From Minisyncoccota bacterium (lineage in GTDB: Bacteria; Patescibacteriota; Minisyncoccia; Phycocordibacterales; WO2-35-19): DNA of 64,000 bases. The stretch is from positions 9,994-73,993 of the forward strand of contig DATDXE010000014.1 of the NCBI GenBank assembly GCA_036517255.1, read 5' to 3'. Shown here piece by piece: positions 33,184-55,203 of this stretch (its first letter is position 1; every line of letters starts with the position of its first letter). The position numbers and the translations under genes are program-made. Below the pieces are notes generated by a model, which searched no databases, had not been told where the DNA came from, and saw only the letters and a list, made by a program, of their open reading frames with translations.

Positions 33184-33861
33184 ATGACCGAACAACAGAC
33201 ACCGAAACTAATGGGGGTTCTCGTCGAGCACCAAGACGCATTCTCCCCGCTACCGATCGAAGACGCCCAATGGGTGATTCGGAATCCCAAAGAAGCAATC
33301 TCACTCTTCTTGATTGCGGTGAAAAACCGAGTACGAGAAGCGGCGACTACGATCAAAAACATTCTCTCTCCAGTCAAAAAGATCACCATCGCGGCGACGG
33401 CGGAGAAGAGGACGGAGGAGTGTTTCGCGGACAGCAAGAAGTACTACCGCGACCCCAGCGTTCTCTCGTTGCTTCCGGAATTTCAGCCAGCACGGGGGGT
33501 CGAGCAAGGGCAAGTGAGTCAGCTCAACGAGAGATCCAAGTTTTTGGGGATGGTGCAGAGTCTCCTCGGTGTAATGGAAGACGGTATCGCCGTTCTCTCA
33601 CGGCTCATCATTGAGTCTTTCCACATCTATACCTTGACCCAAATCGAGCAGCTCGTCGAGCGGCAAGAGGCAGGTGAGGATGTAGGCCTTCTCACGAACG
33701 GCTGGGGCAACTTCTTTCTGGTGCTGAATCGGGAAGGTAGCGTCTCGGTCGTCGATGTCATTCGGGCTGGCAGTCAGTGGCTCTTCTTCGCTTACGTCCT
33801 CGGCTTCGTCCGCGTCTGGTCTGTCGGGCGCCGCTTCTTCTCTCGCAACAAGACCCTGTGA
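33184..33861 (+). CDS. DGR target protein 1 (variable protein; VR at C-terminus), GC-rich
   Basis: 3' 111 nt match downstream TR 34116-34226 except at TR adenines; last 37 codons hypervariable-type Asn-derived positions. Confidence 0.8.
   Translation: MTEQQTPKLMGVLVEHQDAFSPLPIEDAQWVIRNPKEAISLFLIAVKNRVREAATTIKNILSPVKKITIAATAEKRTEECFADSKKYYRDPSVLSLLPEFQPARGVEQGQVSQLNERSKFLGMVQSLLGVMEDGIAVLSRLIIESFHIYTLTQIEQLVERQEAGEDVGLLTNGWGNFFLVLNREGSVSVVDVIRAGSQWLFFAYVLGFVRVWSVGRRFFSRNKTL
33739..33849 (+). repeat. DGR variable repeat VR1
   Basis: 111 nt aligned to TR1 with about 20 mismatches, every mismatch at a TR adenine (TR AAT/AAC codons). Confidence 0.9.
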
Positions 33862-33895
33862 TCCTTTGAATCTTTTTGGACACTTGGTCTTACTT

Positions 33896-33921
33896 CCCCA
33901 GTCTGTTTCGGCAGGCTGGGG
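33896..33921 (+). promoter_or_regulatory. GC hairpin 47 nt downstream of VR1 (ccccagtctg-tttcgg-caggctgggg), candidate DGR homing hairpin/cruciform
   Basis: 10-bp stem with one G-T position, located just 3' of VR/IMH as in characterised DGRs. Confidence 0.45.
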
Positions 33922-34115
33922 ATTTCATTTATAATAAATAAGAATACGCTGGCATCTTTGGGTTATTCTAAAGGTGGCGATTCAAAGCCAACAATTTTTG
34001 TCGGCTTCAAAAAATAAATAGTTGGTGCACTCCTTCAAGAAGTTAAAAACTTCAAAGGCGAAATCAACTCAGAGAGAATTCAATGAGTGGTGACTATAGA
34101 AGGTGGGGTGTACAA

Positions 34116-34226
34116 AGCGTCTCGGTCGTCAATGTCAATCGGAATGACAGTCAGTGGAACTTCTACGCTTACGACCTCGGCAACGACAACGTCTGGAATG
34201 TCGAGAACCGCTTCTTCTCTCGAAAC
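34116..34226 (+). repeat. DGR template repeat TR1 (adenine-rich, noncoding)
   Basis: Invariant partner of VR1; contains AAC/AAT at all variable positions. Confidence 0.9.
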
Positions 34227-34597
34227 TATCTGTTTTCCCCAAAGGAATTAACTCCTGAGGGGTTTTTCTTTTCTAAATATTCTTTCCAACCAGAGAGCAT
34301 TTTGCCTGCATCTACCAGTACTGGAGAAATTCTTACATATTTTTTGTCTACAAGTATTTTACATTCCCACATGAGGAGAAGGAAAAACTTGGCCAAATCA
34401 TTTTTTATCATAGCCTCTGATACCAGTTCAATTTTTCGAATTCCTTTGCTGTAGGCGGCTCTAAAAGTAAGATCGAGAGTTTCTAAAAGAAGTCTGTCTA
34501 TTTTTACCCCTATCGTTTGCCTGTGGCTTTTAGAAATGTGAGGAAGTATCTCCTGCCAGACCTTATACCCAAGTTTTAAACACTCTAGCACTGGCAA
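34226..34597 (-). CDS. avd: Avd-like accessory variability determinant (four-helix-bundle protein), TTG start, stop overlaps TR1 end
   Basis: 123 aa, basic helical protein with Avd/23S-IVS four-helix-bundle pattern (YKVWQ..., LLLMWECKIL); between TR and RT. Confidence 0.6.
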   Translation of the reverse strand: MPVLECLKLGYKVWQEILPHISKSHRQTIGVKIDRLLLETLDLTFRAAYSKGIRKIELVSEAMIKNDLAKFFLLLMWECKILVDKKYVRISPVLVDAGKMLSGWKEYLEKKNPSGVNSFGENR

Positions 34598-34605
34598 AGA
34601 GCTGC

Positions 34606-34613
34606 GGGGGGGG
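34606..34613. repeat. G8 homopolymer tract between avd1 start and RT1 start
   Basis: gctgcggggggggtagc in otherwise AT-rich spacer; paralogous G10 tract at same position in second cassette. Confidence 0.8.
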
Positions 34614-34626
34614 TAGCATTTGAGGA

Positions 34627-35640
34627 ATGAAAATTCAGCTTGCTCACAGTTATGATGATATCATTTCAATCAAAAATTTACTCGAAGCTTGGGAAGAATT
34701 TATACCGGGGAAAAGAAATAAAGAAGATGTGGCTAAGTTTGCTCTCGACTTGATGGATAATATTGTTTCCCTGCATAAGGATTTGGAGAGCAAAAAATAT
34801 AGACATGGTGCCTATACTGCTTTCAATATATCTGATCCAAAACCTAGGAATATTCACAAAGCTAATGTGAGAGATAGGCTATTGCATCGCGCTTTGTACA
34901 GAATCCTTTACCCTCATTTTGACAAAACTTTTTATTCAGAATCATATTCGTGCCGAGTAAATAAAGGTACTCACAAAGCGATGAATAAGTTTAGGAAATT
35001 TGCCAAGAAAGAATCTTTGAATCACTCAAAAACTCTATGGATATTAAAATGTGATATAAGAAAATTTTTTGCTTCCATTGACCACAATATTTTGTGTAAA
35101 ATTGTCGAAAAATACATACCCGATCAAAATATAAACTGGCTACTTACTGAAATTATTGAGAGTTTCCATTCTACTCAAAGAGGTTTCGGCTTACCTTTGG
35201 GTAATGTAACTTCACAGGTATTGGTGAATATTTATATGAATGAATTTGATACTTGGGTAAAACATGTAATGAAAATAAAATATTATATTAGGTATGCGGA
35301 TGATTTTCTGATTTTAAATAAAGATAAAGATTATTTACTCGAGCTTATTCCAAAAATTGCAGATTTTCTGGAAGAAAATTTAAAACTTTCTCTACATCCC
35401 CAAAAGGTTTCTATTCAAACTTTTGCCTCAGGGACTGACTTTCTAGGTTGGGTAAATTTTGTTGATCACAAAGTGTTGCGCACAAGTACAAAAAGAAGAT
35501 TACTCAAAGCTTTATCACAGAGTGAAAATATAAATGTCTTACAATCTTACAGTAGCCTTTTGAAACATGGGAATCAATTTAGGCTTAAAAGTAAGATAAA
35601 TGAAAAAATTGAGATTTTAAGAGGGGGAGTTAATAATTAA
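34627..35640 (+). CDS. DGR reverse transcriptase 1
   Basis: RT motifs: NISDPKPRNIHKANVRDRLLH, IRKFFASIDH, GLPLGNVTSQVLVNIYMNEFD, IRYADDFLIL (YADD catalytic motif); adjacent TR/VR. Confidence 0.85.
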   Translation: MKIQLAHSYDDIISIKNLLEAWEEFIPGKRNKEDVAKFALDLMDNIVSLHKDLESKKYRHGAYTAFNISDPKPRNIHKANVRDRLLHRALYRILYPHFDKTFYSESYSCRVNKGTHKAMNKFRKFAKKESLNHSKTLWILKCDIRKFFASIDHNILCKIVEKYIPDQNINWLLTEIIESFHSTQRGFGLPLGNVTSQVLVNIYMNEFDTWVKHVMKIKYYIRYADDFLILNKDKDYLLELIPKIADFLEENLKLSLHPQKVSIQTFASGTDFLGWVNFVDHKVLRTSTKRRLLKALSQSENINVLQSYSSLLKHGNQFRLKSKINEKIEILRGGVNN

Positions 35641-51830: not shown

Positions 51831-52574
51831 ATGCAACCGGAAATAATCTATGAAGATGAAAGTATCGTGGCTGTAAATAAGCCTTCTGGACTCTTGGTCC
51901 ATCCTGCTTCATCTACAGAAAGGCCGGACGCTATTTCTAAAGAAGAAACTCTTTCTGATTGGGTATTGGCAAAATATCCTGGAACGGCTGAAGTGGGTGA
52001 GCCGATTATTTTAAAAACAGGAGAAATCATAAAAAGGCCGGGTATCGTGCATCGGTTGGACAAAGAGACGAGCGGTGTTATCCTCATCGCTAAAACAGAG
52101 GAAGCTTTCCAGCATTTGAAATCGCAATTTAAAAACAGGCAAATAGAAAAAACATATCGGGCTTTTGTGTGGGGGAATTTTAAAGAGCTCGAGGGAGAAA
52201 TAAATAAACCTATTGGTCGAAGCGTTTCTGATTTTAGAAAGAAGTCGGCTGGCCGCGGAGCTACTGGCTTACAAAGAGAAGCTCTTACTTTATACAAAGT
52301 CATAGCTCAAAATAATGAGAATGCCTATTTGGAAGTGTATCCTAAAACGGGACGCACTCATCAGATAAGGGTACATTTGCAGTCGATAAGCCGGCCTGTT
52401 GTCGGTGATACTCTCTATGCTCCGAAACTGCCTCTAGCTTTGGGCTTCGAGCGCCTTGCTTTGCATGCTCTTTCAGTCAAGTTCCTCGACCTTTCTGGGA
52501 AAGAAATCTCTGTCTTAGCTCCTCTGCCCCAGGATTTTAAAGAGGCGGAAGCTTGCTTTTTAGACAACAAATGA
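51831..52574 (+). CDS. RluA-family pseudouridine synthase
   Basis: Catalytic motif HRLDKETSGVILIAKT. Confidence 0.75.
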   Translation: MQPEIIYEDESIVAVNKPSGLLVHPASSTERPDAISKEETLSDWVLAKYPGTAEVGEPIILKTGEIIKRPGIVHRLDKETSGVILIAKTEEAFQHLKSQFKNRQIEKTYRAFVWGNFKELEGEINKPIGRSVSDFRKKSAGRGATGLQREALTLYKVIAQNNENAYLEVYPKTGRTHQIRVHLQSISRPVVGDTLYAPKLPLALGFERLALHALSVKFLDLSGKEISVLAPLPQDFKEAEACFLDNK

Positions 52575-52620: not shown

Positions 52621-53361
52621 GTGTTTTTAACGAAAGATGAGGGCGACTATATGTCGATTGCATCTACTGTAAAAGAAGGTCAGATCGATGAGATCTGCCG
52701 GACTGCCGACGCATTTACGAAATCCGTGGTGCGTACTGCTCTCGAAGAATTGATTGCCGAAGGCGAACTCGAAACTGAGGGAGCTCAGCGGGTAATCTCA
52801 AATGGTGATCGTCTGAGAGCCAAAATGATCCCCGCCTACAAGGTGGCGATTGCGGAACTCTCAACGAAAAGAACGAGCTGTCTTGCACTCATTTCGAGTG
52901 GCAAGAAGGTCGTCATCAAGGCTACGACTGGCAAGAAATTGATCAGTGGGGCTAAGGACACGTTCCCTGGTTGGATCGATGCCGACTTTACAAATTACGG
53001 CTGCGATGTTCTCGGAGAGGCGAAGCCGGAAACGCCAGTCGAAGTCTTCGAGATGACAGCTGCCGCTGATTTCTCGGGCATATTTGGGAGTTTCGATGTT
53101 GAGCTCGATGATCTCGCCTTCGACCAAGAGCAGGTGATCGAGTTTGCCCGCGAAAATACAGACTGGCTTCATCCGGAAGGCTACGCCACCTTGCTTCTTT
53201 TCAAAGTTGGAAAAGGTGGGAAAAAGAAGTTCTTCGTGGCGCGTGTCTGCCGGAGTGCCGGCCGTCTCGAGGCCTATGCCCACCACTTTTCGATCGACTA
53301 TGTCTGGGATGCCGAGCACCGGTATCGTGTGGTTGTCCCGCAACTGAAACTCAAATCTTAG
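52621..53361 (+). CDS. DGR target protein 2 (VR at C-terminus), moderately GC-rich
   Basis: 3' 117 nt match TR 53665-53781 except at TR adenines. Confidence 0.8.
   Translation: MFLTKDEGDYMSIASTVKEGQIDEICRTADAFTKSVVRTALEELIAEGELETEGAQRVISNGDRLRAKMIPAYKVAIAELSTKRTSCLALISSGKKVVIKATTGKKLISGAKDTFPGWIDADFTNYGCDVLGEAKPETPVEVFEMTAAADFSGIFGSFDVELDDLAFDQEQVIEFARENTDWLHPEGYATLLLFKVGKGGKKKFFVARVCRSAGRLEAYAHHFSIDYVWDAEHRYRVVVPQLKLKS
53230..53346 (+). repeat. DGR variable repeat VR2
   Basis: 117 nt aligned to TR2 with about 17 mismatches, all at TR adenines. Confidence 0.9.
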
Positions 53362-53664
53362 GGCTCGACCCTTTGATTCTCAATCCCTTGGACCCTCTAT
53401 CAACTTTGGTTGGTATGGCCCAAGGGATTTTTGTTATACTAATATTCCAATATATGGATGCATCGCGGTCATGACTTCGATGCCATGATTGGGTGAAAAT
53501 ATTATTTGAGAATTTTGTTGGCTACGGCTTATAGAAGAGTAGATATATTTTTACAAACAAAAAATATTTAGTTGGTGTAGTAAACTGGAGGACTTTTATG
53601 TCCCAAATAATATAGCTTTTTGTCGTGATTCGGCAGATTGCTTTTTGGATGGTTTACTGCACAT

Positions 53665-53781
53665 TTCTTCGTGGCGAATGTCTACCGGAATGCCGGCAAT
53701 CTCAAGGCCAATGCCAACCACTTTTCGAACGACAATGTCTGGAATGCCGAGAACCGGAATCGTGTGGTTGTCCCGAAACTA
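53665..53781 (+). repeat. DGR template repeat TR2
   Basis: Adenine-rich invariant partner of VR2; shares gacaa(c/t)gtctggaatg(t/c)cgagaacc core with TR1. Confidence 0.9.
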
Positions 53782-53804: not shown

Positions 53805-54149
53805 TTACTTCGCGGGGAGTTTTGTTTCCAAGCCTTTCTTCCATCCTCCGAGCATTCGACCTATCTCTTCAAGTTTCACTGACAGTTCAGAATGTTTTTC
53901 TGTCGGTATGAGTTTATTCTCCCAAGCTAGTTGCACGAAGAATTTTACTGCATCGAGTTTTGAGATCGTCTTCCTAAGTGCTATAATTTTCTCTACTGTT
54001 GGCAGATAAGCTGAATTTAGAGTGTATTCCAGGAGAGATAAGAGACTCTGGTCTAATCTATAACCGATTCCGAACCTTTCGACCCTAGGGAAGTTCCTTA
54101 AAATATTGAGCCAGAGAGAATAAACCTCTTTTTCTTTTATAATTACCAC
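53805..54149 (-). CDS. avd: Avd-like accessory variability determinant 2 (GTG start)
   Basis: 114 aa helical protein with same pattern and position as avd1. Confidence 0.6.
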   Translation of the reverse strand: MVIIKEKEVYSLWLNILRNFPRVERFGIGYRLDQSLLSLLEYTLNSAYLPTVEKIIALRKTISKLDAVKFFVQLAWENKLIPTEKHSELSVKLEEIGRMLGGWKKGLETKLPAK

Positions 54150-54161
54150 GGGCGGTCGTGC

Positions 54162-54171
54162 GGGGGGGGGG
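54162..54171. repeat. G10 homopolymer tract between avd2 start and RT2 start
   Basis: cggggggggggc directly read from sequence. Confidence 0.85.
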
Positions 54172-54204
54172 CATTATTGTCATATTTTTTGTGTTCTAAT
54201 TTTT

Positions 54205-55203
54205 ATGAAAAATAAAATAATCATCTCTTATCTAGATATTATATCAGTTCAAAATCTTTACGAAGCATGGGAAGAATTTCTGCCCGGAAAAAAGAAGAAA
54301 GAAGATGTGGCAGAATTTGCATTAAATTTGTCTAGTAATATTTTAAAATTGCATTCCGATCTAGTTAATAGAAATTATACCCATGGAGCTTACAAAGCTT
54401 TTAACATTTCTGACCCAAAACCTCGTAATATTCATAAAGCCTCTGTTCGCGATCGGCTCTTGCACCATGCTATTTATAAAATCCTGTACCCATACTTCGA
54501 TAGGCTTTTTATTTTTGACTCATATTCCTGTCGTGTGGCTAAAGGAACACACAAAGCCATAGAAAGATTTAAAAAATTTGGAAACCAAGTCTCCAAGAGC
54601 AATACCAAAACTTGTTGGGTTTTGAAGTGTGACATACGAAAATTTTTTGCAAGTATAAATCATAAGATTTTGCTAGACATTTTAAAAAAATATATAAAAG
54701 ACCGAGAAATCATTTGGCTTCTAGAAAGAATTATATTAAGTTTCTTTTCAACAAAGGTTGGGGTCGGTTTACCTCTGGGCAATCTTACGTCTCAACTTTT
54801 GGTGAATATTTATATGAATGAATTTGATCAATATATAAAACATATATTAAAAATTCGACATTATATACGTTATGCCGATGATTTTGTTTTTCTTGATACT
54901 GATAAGGATCGGCTTTTGGAACTTATTCCTAGGACAGCTGATTTTCTAGACGAGCACCTCAAACTACAAATTCATCCTGACAAACTGTTTATCCGAACTC
55001 TTGCTTCTGGCTTGGATTTTCTCGGCTGGGTACATTTTCCGAAATATCGAGTATTGCGGACCGTAACAAAAAGGAGAATGTTCAAAAGAATAAAAGAAGT
55101 AGAGTGGAATAAAGAGACGGTAGGTTCTTATCTTGGGATGCTAAGATGGGGGGATAATTACAATCTGGAGCAGATTATAGAAGATGAAAAATCGTTGCAC
55201 TGA
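54205..55203 (+). CDS. DGR reverse transcriptase 2 (paralog of RT1)
   Basis: Same RT motifs incl. IRYADDFVFL; roughly 65% identical to RT1 by eye. Confidence 0.85.
   Translation: MKNKIIISYLDIISVQNLYEAWEEFLPGKKKKEDVAEFALNLSSNILKLHSDLVNRNYTHGAYKAFNISDPKPRNIHKASVRDRLLHHAIYKILYPYFDRLFIFDSYSCRVAKGTHKAIERFKKFGNQVSKSNTKTCWVLKCDIRKFFASINHKILLDILKKYIKDREIIWLLERIILSFFSTKVGVGLPLGNLTSQLLVNIYMNEFDQYIKHILKIRHYIRYADDFVFLDTDKDRLLELIPRTADFLDEHLKLQIHPDKLFIRTLASGLDFLGWVHFPKYRVLRTVTKRRMFKRIKEVEWNKETVGSYLGMLRWGDNYNLEQIIEDEKSLH

Follow-up and report, generated by a model that had tools for sequence, protein, structure and literature searches.

Contingency loci, where a simple-sequence repeat in the 5′ coding region makes a gene phase-variable, are familiar from poly-G/C tracts in genes of Campylobacter, Neisseria and Helicobacter and from tetranucleotide repeats in Haemophilus. 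Poly-G/C or (TA)n repeats are also known within promoters, as at porA, opc, fim and hif. In the Bordetella phage system, it is established that the DGR RT needs Avd for cDNA synthesis. A question in DGR regulation is how a useful variant can be kept instead of being mutated away. Here we describe DGRs in which a slippage-prone repeat sits at the start of avd, and we judge it probable, from sequence comparison, that this repeat, by its length, determines the frame in which avd is read and thereby turns targeted hypermutation ON and OFF.

The window, that is the whole 64-kb stretch of DNA analysed, contains two cassettes 20 kb apart. Both share one layout, consisting of a target gene with a 3′ VR, a TR some 380-430 nt downstream of the VR, a bAvd-like gene on the minus strand, the tract, and an RVT_1 RT on the plus strand. 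The cassettes flanking the two tracts are genuine DGRs: every mismatch between TR and VR falls on an adenine of the TR, and both bAvd and RVT_1 domains were found. Their features are the following.

VR1: 33739..33849, plus strand, at the 3′ end of the target gene 33184-33861
TR1: 34116..34226, plus strand; 20 of 20 differences from VR1 fall on TR adenines
avd1 body: 34226..34597, minus strand, bAvd-like, 123 aa from TTG 34597
Cassette 1 repeat: 34606..34613, minus strand; G8 on the plus strand, C8 on the avd strand
avd1 leader ATG: 34617..34619, minus strand, reading ATG CTA CCC CCC CC...
RT1: 34627..35640, plus strand, 337 aa, RVT_1 (Pfam, E=3.5e-25 and 8e-22 for the two RTs)
VR2: 53230..53345, plus strand, at the 3′ end of the target gene 52621-53361
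TR2: 53665..53780, plus strand; 15 of 15 differences from VR2 fall on TR adenines
avd2 body: 53805..54149, minus strand, bAvd-like, PF22296 E=1.9e-16, over the curated cut-off
Cassette 2 repeat: 54162..54171, minus strand; G10 on the plus strand, C10 on the avd strand
avd2 leader: 54172..54183, minus strand, ATG ACA ATA ATG followed by C10 GCA CGA...
RT2: 54205..55203, plus strand, 332 aa, 61 % identical to RT1

The match of avd1 to bAvd (PF22296, E=4.2e-6) lies under the curated Pfam cut-off. The RT alignment shows in RT1 the stretch LGNVTSQ, which we take to be typical of DGR RTs, and the closest RT homologues (60-72 % identity) belong to Patescibacteria/CPR, for example Zambryskibacteria and Parcubacteria. 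The two cassettes are old paralogues; the tract has been retained in both despite identities of 61 % between the RTs and only 37 % between avd1 and avd2. Next to cassette 2 (window 51831-52574) and next to the DGR of a related lineage, P0026 (L123-L128), a PseudoU_synth_2 gene lies 5′ of the target gene. Because these two DGRs share neighbours, the DGR appears to be chromosomal and syntenic across species and not phage-borne.

A first-pass annotation of this DNA had placed a G8 tract at 34606-34613 and a G10 tract at 54162-54171, precisely between divergent avd and RT genes, in spacers of 30-55 bp and in a genome of roughly 38 % GC. Re-reading the letters confirmed both positions. Measured from the first in-frame avd start to the RT ATG, the spacers are 29 bp in cassette 1 (TTG 34597 to ATG 34627) and 55 bp in cassette 2 (GTG 54149 to ATG 54205), much as described. 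The tracts are indeed rare, as the only G/C runs of at least 7 in the 64-kb window, where the next-longest are five runs of 6; the GC content is 41 % rather than ~38 %. The genes do diverge, but the position of the tract between them is only apparent, because an ATG on the minus strand reads into the C-run.

In cassette 1 the repeat lies 13 nt 5′ of the RT1 ATG and directly follows the leader codons ATG-CTA, the minus strand reading ATG CTA C8 GCA GCT CTT TGC... This leader is off by one base relative to the avd1 body, so that a +1 shift is needed to join them, and in the present phase the leader ORF meets a stop after 18 codons, at ~34563. Translated in silico, C7 or C10 gives a fusion of leader and body (MLPPRSSLPVLE... 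or MLPPPRSSLPVLE...), with the product MLPP(P)RSSLPVLE... The TTG at 34597-34595 is the conserved Leu of the avd1 L-P-V-L motif and a possible fallback start, GTG 34591 being an alternative one. In cassette 2 the repeat comes directly after a leader ATG and 33 nt 5′ of the RT2 ATG. Two leader ATGs (54174-54172 and 54183-54181) share one frame, again off by one base against the avd2 body, and C9 or C12 yields the fusion in silico (…MPPPARPPVVIIKEKEVY…). In the present phase GTG 54149 is the only in-frame start of avd2, and a TAA closes the avd frame right 5′ of the C-run. Gene callers applied to other assemblies of this organism give a 29-aa leader ORF at cassette 2 and miss avd2. Both window cassettes would now be in the OFF phase, one base too long, with C7/C10 and C9/C12 as the respective ON lengths. 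In OFF phases, a shorter Avd may still be made from the fallback starts (TTG 34597, GTG 34591, GTG 54149).

The comparison with homologous DGRs that the first-pass annotation had proposed was made by an RT alignment scan of one genome per GTDB species. It gave 80 loci of more than 500 relatives, from many CPR lineages and with RTs 54-70 % identical, of which 78 were scorable. A run of G7 to G14 occupies the same spot in 68 of these 78 loci (67 scored, plus L030 with G12 at a contig end), the lengths being G7 in 2 loci, G8 in 11, G9 in 20, G10 in 17, G11 in 12, G12 in 3, G13 in 3 and G14 in 1. The run ends most often 13 nt before the RT ATG (19 loci), and avd is divergent and immediately 5′ of the RT in 77/78 loci with an Avd match. 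The tract is a conserved feature of this DGR clade and not a product of chance, because 68 of 78 loci share it while only five other G/C runs of at least 7 occur in the same 366 kb of loci. The position shared by both paralogues, to which the first-pass annotation had pointed, thus recurs just 5′ of the RT in homologous loci, well beyond chance.

Farther away, no repeat was found 5′ of the RT in ~60 distant phage DGRs (RT 24-35 % identical). A metagenome scan with RT1 returned 6 loci only, none of them from the same species as the window. In a lineage from Hainich groundwater (P0010, L115-L122; 8 contigs shown of 16 read, from several samples and assemblers, one of them 108 kb), all contigs end 4-29 nt 5′ of the RT start and no tract is readable. 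The assembly breaks where the repeat should be, which would fit a long or heterogeneous repeat.

The type of the repeat varies. In place of the G-run, (GA)n is found in L032, L075, L083 and L088, (CT)n in L086 and L167, (GGCT)8 in L085, and (GT)n in the lineage P0065, while L081 has a degenerate (GCG)3GGGG at this position. Among the survey loci that lack a G-run, six carry (GA)n, (CT)n or (GGCT)n at the same spot. All repeat units are 1, 2 or 4 nt long and none is divisible by 3. The C-runs are pure, though CCC accounts for only 20 % of Pro codons in these genomes; prolines could also be encoded, at equal length and in the same frame, by a sequence with interruptions such as CCACCGCCT. Because other simple repeats replace the G-run at the same place, what is conserved is a slippage-prone repeat and not a particular sequence.

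These replacements also bear on a structural role of the tract, as an element of the DGR template RNA, as an H-DNA or rigid-DNA insulator, or as a protein-binding site. Most of the replacing repeats, (GA)n and (CT)n, are homopurine/homopyrimidine like the G-run itself, and the tract lies on the strand of TR and RT, close to the RT start. On the other hand, (GT)n and (GGCT)n are not homopurine, and length varies freely from 7 to 14, also within lineages. Folding around both tracts, on either strand, is no better than that of shuffled sequences (z +1.5, +1.1, -0.4, +0.6). No Rfam family matches at the tracts, the one sub-threshold hit (NsiR1, E=0.022) lying ~680 nt from the tract. With nothing relevant in Rfam and folding no better than shuffles, an RNA element was rejected as a candidate, and we regard a structural role of any of these kinds as very unlikely.

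Strong hairpins do occur elsewhere in the cassettes. GC-rich hairpins at 33895-33922 (12-bp stem with a 4-nt loop) and 53382-53429 (stems of ~10+7 bp) lie 35-45 nt 3′ of each VR, with fold z of -6.0 and -5.0, a position at which target-recognition hairpins of DGRs, or terminators, would be expected. The sub-threshold NsiR1 match (33877-33930) is the hairpin 3′ of VR1, and a promoter-like TCGGCA-16-TATAAT (33908-33935) overlaps the same hairpin, 5′ of TR1.

The sequence on either side of the repeat carries the marks of a coding region. ORF lists place the avd start at a TTG or GTG just 3′ of the C-run. Across the 53 alignable loci, the site of this TTG is always a Leu codon (TTG 32, TTA 13, CTT 3, CTG 3, CTA 2) and in 40 % of them it does not double as a start codon. 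It is preceded by [C/A]T[T/C], which encodes Leu or Ile and varies at the third position. Because the Leu site varies synonymously and the preceding codon varies as a Leu/Ile codon does, the region 3′ of the repeat behaves as translated sequence. The idea that avd must start at the TTG in TTTTGCCAGT, with the tract as part of a 5′ UTR, was discarded because of this variation at the Leu site and at the codon before it.

On the other side, 66 of 67 repeat-bearing loci have an ATG from which an open frame leads into the run. In most loci the leader ATG is the antisense of a conserved RT codon, His~7, located ~37 nt before the run. In 45 of 46 loci no stop interrupts the frame of this His-antisense ATG before the run, against 10 of 92 for the other two frames, whereas equal-length antisense windows inside the RT are open in 60 % of cases (p=1.6e-9 against 45/46; the loci are phylogenetically related, so that this and the other p-values given here overstate independence). 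Of the 67 repeat-bearing loci, 20 have leader and avd body in one frame. Repeat-free relatives with the same divergent layout (L078, L087, L151, L152, L154, L156-158, L160-162, L164, L165, L171) have an in-frame ATG in 14 of 14 cases, 4-20 codons 5′ of the P-[VI]-[LF] motif (Fisher p=7.6e-7 between repeat-bearing and repeat-free loci, which are related). Five loci (L085, L086, L029, L011, L048) have no usable avd start in their present phase, and in the P0026 lineage gene callers missed avd in 9 of 10 contigs. The repeat lies in the 5′ part of the ORF, with C8 and C10 right after the leader ATG-CTA or ATG, and its length moves the body in and out of frame, in silico in the window and through natural alleles in relatives. 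The order of ATG, short leader, repeat and gene body is that of a translational phase-variable gene.

One signal may go beyond the coding pattern. TTG is enriched at the Leu site (60 % against a 21 % background, p=6e-10, for related loci), and this enrichment may keep the downstream TTG alive as a fallback start. In L028, L059 and L071, a near-perfect palindrome, CTTTTGCCA-N4-TGGCAAAAG, follows just after the C-run on the avd strand, over the conserved Leu-Pro codons; it is weaker in many other loci. The palindrome and the TTG enrichment together hint at a nucleotide-level signal beyond coding, whether an operator, an RNA hairpin or a fallback start.

A repeat within a coding leader could also be bridged without any change in the DNA. 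If RNA polymerase slipped on the run, or ribosomes slipped by +1 on the CCC-C proline codons, part of the products would regain the avd frame; this would provide a low constitutive level of Avd at any DNA length and make length variation incidental. Long C-runs read as CCC near the start codon are known slippery sites, and both window cassettes need the same +1 shift; recoding would moreover explain how OFF phases are tolerated in ~70 % of genomes. The relatives do not follow this pattern. Among loci with a nearby ATG, the needed shifts are evenly spread (7 none, 10 +1 and 6 -1), with no single conserved direction among homologues, and tracts of 7-8 are short for transcriptional slippage. Di- and tetranucleotide repeats, which are not known as recoding signals, occupy the same position in relatives. 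A conserved programmed +1 frameshift in particular was dismissed as the general mechanism, since in most relatives any ATG lies more than 15 nt from the run and the shifts are evenly distributed. We therefore think recoding quite unlikely as the main role of the repeat.

A transcriptional role was weighed in the same way. Here the repeat would lie in a promoter spacer or 5′ UTR shared by avd and RT, and its length would tune promoter geometry. A -10-like TAnnnT (e.g. TAGAAT) directly follows the G-run on its 3′ side in roughly half of the relatives, with the RT ATG 7 nt further on, and a weak -35-like TGGCAA, or the better-matching cTGGCA, precedes the hexamer by 16-19 nt in 38 of 53 loci. The distance from the tract to the RT ATG is tightly kept, at 13 nt in 19 loci. 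Promoter prediction on the two spacers, which the first-pass annotation had also proposed, nevertheless found no sigma-70-like site and no -35/-10 pair across either window tract. Linker and tract length compensate each other only weakly (r=-0.21, p=0.14), and repeats of 16-38 bp such as (GA)15, (GGCT)8, (CT)19 and (GT)8-12 cannot form a 17-bp spacer. The open leader frame, the Leu-codon pattern and the lack of any repeat unit divisible by 3 would be left unexplained. The G-run as a promoter spacer with length compensation was rejected, given the weak correlation and the lack of a promoter-like site over the tracts, and a transcriptional role in general seems unlikely to us. The earlier suggestion that the tract is a promoter or structural element of a bidirectional control region thus finds no support, there being no sigma-70-like site, unusual RNA fold or Rfam match at the tracts.

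The best promoter-like sites of cassette 2 lie instead inside the partner genes. On the plus strand, TTGAGA-16-TG-TATAAT (53960-53987, 11 of 12 matches) is located inside avd2 and points at RT2; on the minus strand, TTAACT-17-TAAAAT (54368-54340) is located inside RT2 and points at avd2. The avd2 and RT2 mRNAs would therefore overlap, and both would contain the repeat.

Length variation was examined in lineages, each defined as a set of contigs whose encoded RT proteins are identical although the samples are independent, all of them consensus assemblies. As the tract lies outside the RT ORF, this look-up is unbiased for tract length; P0066 is uninformative, since its called RT ORF includes the tract and an exact-protein look-up returns one length only. 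In P0038 (Parcubacteria GW2011_GWB1_35_5) the tract is G10 in five contigs, G9 in three and G8 in two. It is the sole 1-2 nt indel in 6.7 kb that otherwise contain 8 SNP columns, and control runs in the same region (T8, T8, G7) do not vary. With G8 the leader ATG (ATG AAG A-C8) comes into frame, and the called avd grows from 115 to 123 aa. P0046 has G9 once (in frame by hand count) and G10 twice. In P0065, (GT)8 occurs twice and is in frame, whereas (GT)10, found once, and (GT)12, found twice, fall in the two other frames; these contigs differ by a single SNP in 2.6 kb. In all three lineages, the length alleles toggle the avd frame between contigs whose RT proteins are identical and whose flanks are nearly so.

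Other lineages showed no length variation, namely P0026 (G9 in 10), P0045 (G7 in 9) and P0106 (G9 in 5). The organism of the window likewise has G8 in 7 sequences (the window and 6 assemblies) and G10 in 4 (the window and 3 assemblies) and no variation. Its assemblies are close to clonal (2 and 4 SNPs over 5-6 kb) and have the same VRs throughout, and one of the 3 G10 assemblies carries flanking SNPs. A link between phase and diversification was looked for in P0038 at the consensus level and none was visible, the VR being identical in the G8 (ON) and the G9/G10 (OFF) contigs. At the P0038 locus, L100, the copy from an NCBI genome (GCA_000990895.1), has private deletions of 59 nt and 18 nt relative to nine near-identical metagenome contigs (L096-L105).

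The repeat might also have no function at all, being a mutational or hitch-hiking repeat or an artefact of homopolymer assembly or sequencing. The fraction of loci in the ON phase, 30 %, equals the one third expected if leader and body were unrelated, which is the random expectation and counts against a switch, and most lineages are without polymorphism. This explanation has to face the reproduction of the tracts in independent assemblies from different samples and assemblers, and the persistence of pure runs at RT identities of 54-70 % in genomes nearly without such runs. Homopolymer errors cannot account for the differences of 4 and 8 nt in (GT)n, and the control T8 and G7 runs are invariant. 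We consider absence of function highly improbable, and this reading, artefact included, is largely refuted.

Slipped-strand ON/OFF control of avd or RT, which had been one suggestion of the first-pass annotation, is the interpretation best supported by comparative evidence, because the repeat is near-universal in orthologues, repeat types are interchangeable and three lineages have frame-toggling alleles; tract lengths in the organism's own assemblies, by contrast, are invariant. The site of such slippage would be the 5′ coding leader of avd, consistent with an effect on the avd frame, and not the non-coding spacer that the suggestion implied.

We propose that the switch works as follows. Full-length Avd would start at the ATG 5′ of the repeat (0-9 nt before the run in the window), which is presumably the codon used for Avd translation, and the repeat would be read as prolines, followed by the N-terminus of the Avd body with its conserved x-[L/I]-L-P-V-L. 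Slippage during replication would alter the length of the repeat and bring the body into the frame of the leader ATG or take it out, so that full-length Avd would be made in only one of three phases and OFF phases would lack it. With little or no Avd, the RT would not carry out mutagenic cDNA synthesis, a dependence that we assume to hold here. Mutagenesis would be switched along with Avd because DGR RTs need Avd for cDNA synthesis, and DGR activity is accordingly expected to track the phase of the repeat. Mutagenic retrohoming would thus be either ON or OFF or, given a TTG or GTG as fallback start, high or low. In the OFF state the VR would be frozen until further slippage restores the frame; a useful variant would be kept and diversification resumed later. 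Since TTG is enriched at the Leu site, a start 3′ of the repeat may produce Avd in any phase, which would reduce the switch to a modulator or make it dispensable.

Extended to the clade, the proposal becomes that of a heritable and reversible DGR switch across CPR/Patescibacteria, in which most sampled genomes are OFF with a frozen VR, rare slippage re-arms the element, and the RT, whose 5′ leader also contains the repeat, is perhaps co-regulated; we would give this broader version an even chance of being right. In L032 (2438-2500) the RT frame extends back across (GA)15 as far as an ATG 5′ of it, and in L083 (~500-545) and L088 (~2480-2500) one GA unit fewer would, by hand count, open the RT frame likewise. 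These three loci have no RT ATG between the repeat and the conserved RT N-terminus. In (GA)n lineages the repeat may lie inside the RT ORF too, switching both proteins.

Repeat-mediated phase variation is classical; what appears to be new is its target, the accessory gene of a DGR in a clade that extends across the CPR. A full-text search that included DGR surveys returned no report of a repeat switch or of phase variation of a DGR or Avd, the main paper on CPR DGRs (Paul et al. 2017) lying outside that search. If our proposal is true, a stochastic repeat switch of Avd would solve the keeping of variants at the level of the population. It would amount to second-order control, with a mutator governed by a second hypermutable site, and would mean that the logic of contingency loci is widespread in CPR bacteria, which cannot be cultured. 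It would also explain why avd is often missed or truncated by gene callers in these genomes, and repeat length modulo 3 would become a sequence-only predictor of armed DGRs in metagenomes.

Among the systems described so far, promoter-spacer repeats (Neisseria porA/opc, Bordetella fim poly-C, Haemophilus hif (TA)n) resemble the present locus in having a homopolymer by divergent or adjacent genes, and in these systems length variation modulates expression. They differ in that no -35/-10 pair flanks the window tracts, where the coding signals point to a frame switch. The DGR of Bordetella phage BPP-1 (mtd-VR, avd, TR, brt) shares the adenine-specific differences between TR and VR, a bAvd-like protein, a DGR-type RT, and a VR at the 3′ end of the target gene followed by a strong hairpin. 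Unlike BPP-1, the cassettes described here have avd inverted between TR and RT, head-to-head with the RT, and carry a slippage-prone repeat in the 5′ end of avd. Because of this inversion, a transcript from TR to RT is antisense to the whole of avd, and the template RNA organisation of the clade must differ from the avd-TR-spacer-brt RNA of the Bordetella phage.

Contingency loci share with the locus the succession of ATG leader, mono-, di- or tetranucleotide repeat and gene body, with length setting the frame. In contingency loci, as in three of the related lineages compared here, close relatives differ in length and ON and OFF alleles coexist. The type of repeat differs between lineages while its position is kept. 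The differences are that the gene here is a DGR accessory gene rather than a surface antigen, restriction-modification gene or glycosyltransferase, that the hosts are uncultured CPR/Patescibacteria, that the repeat is situated where avd overlaps, head to head, the 5′ end of the RT, and that reversible switching is here a prediction from sequence alleles. Finally, phasevarions, in which the repeat of a phase-variable mod methyltransferase gene controls an entire regulon, offer the parallel of a frame switch in one gene that randomly changes, across the population, a genome-wide or locus-wide state of diversity; at the locus described here, the effect would be targeted hypermutation of one protein instead of methylation-dependent expression.
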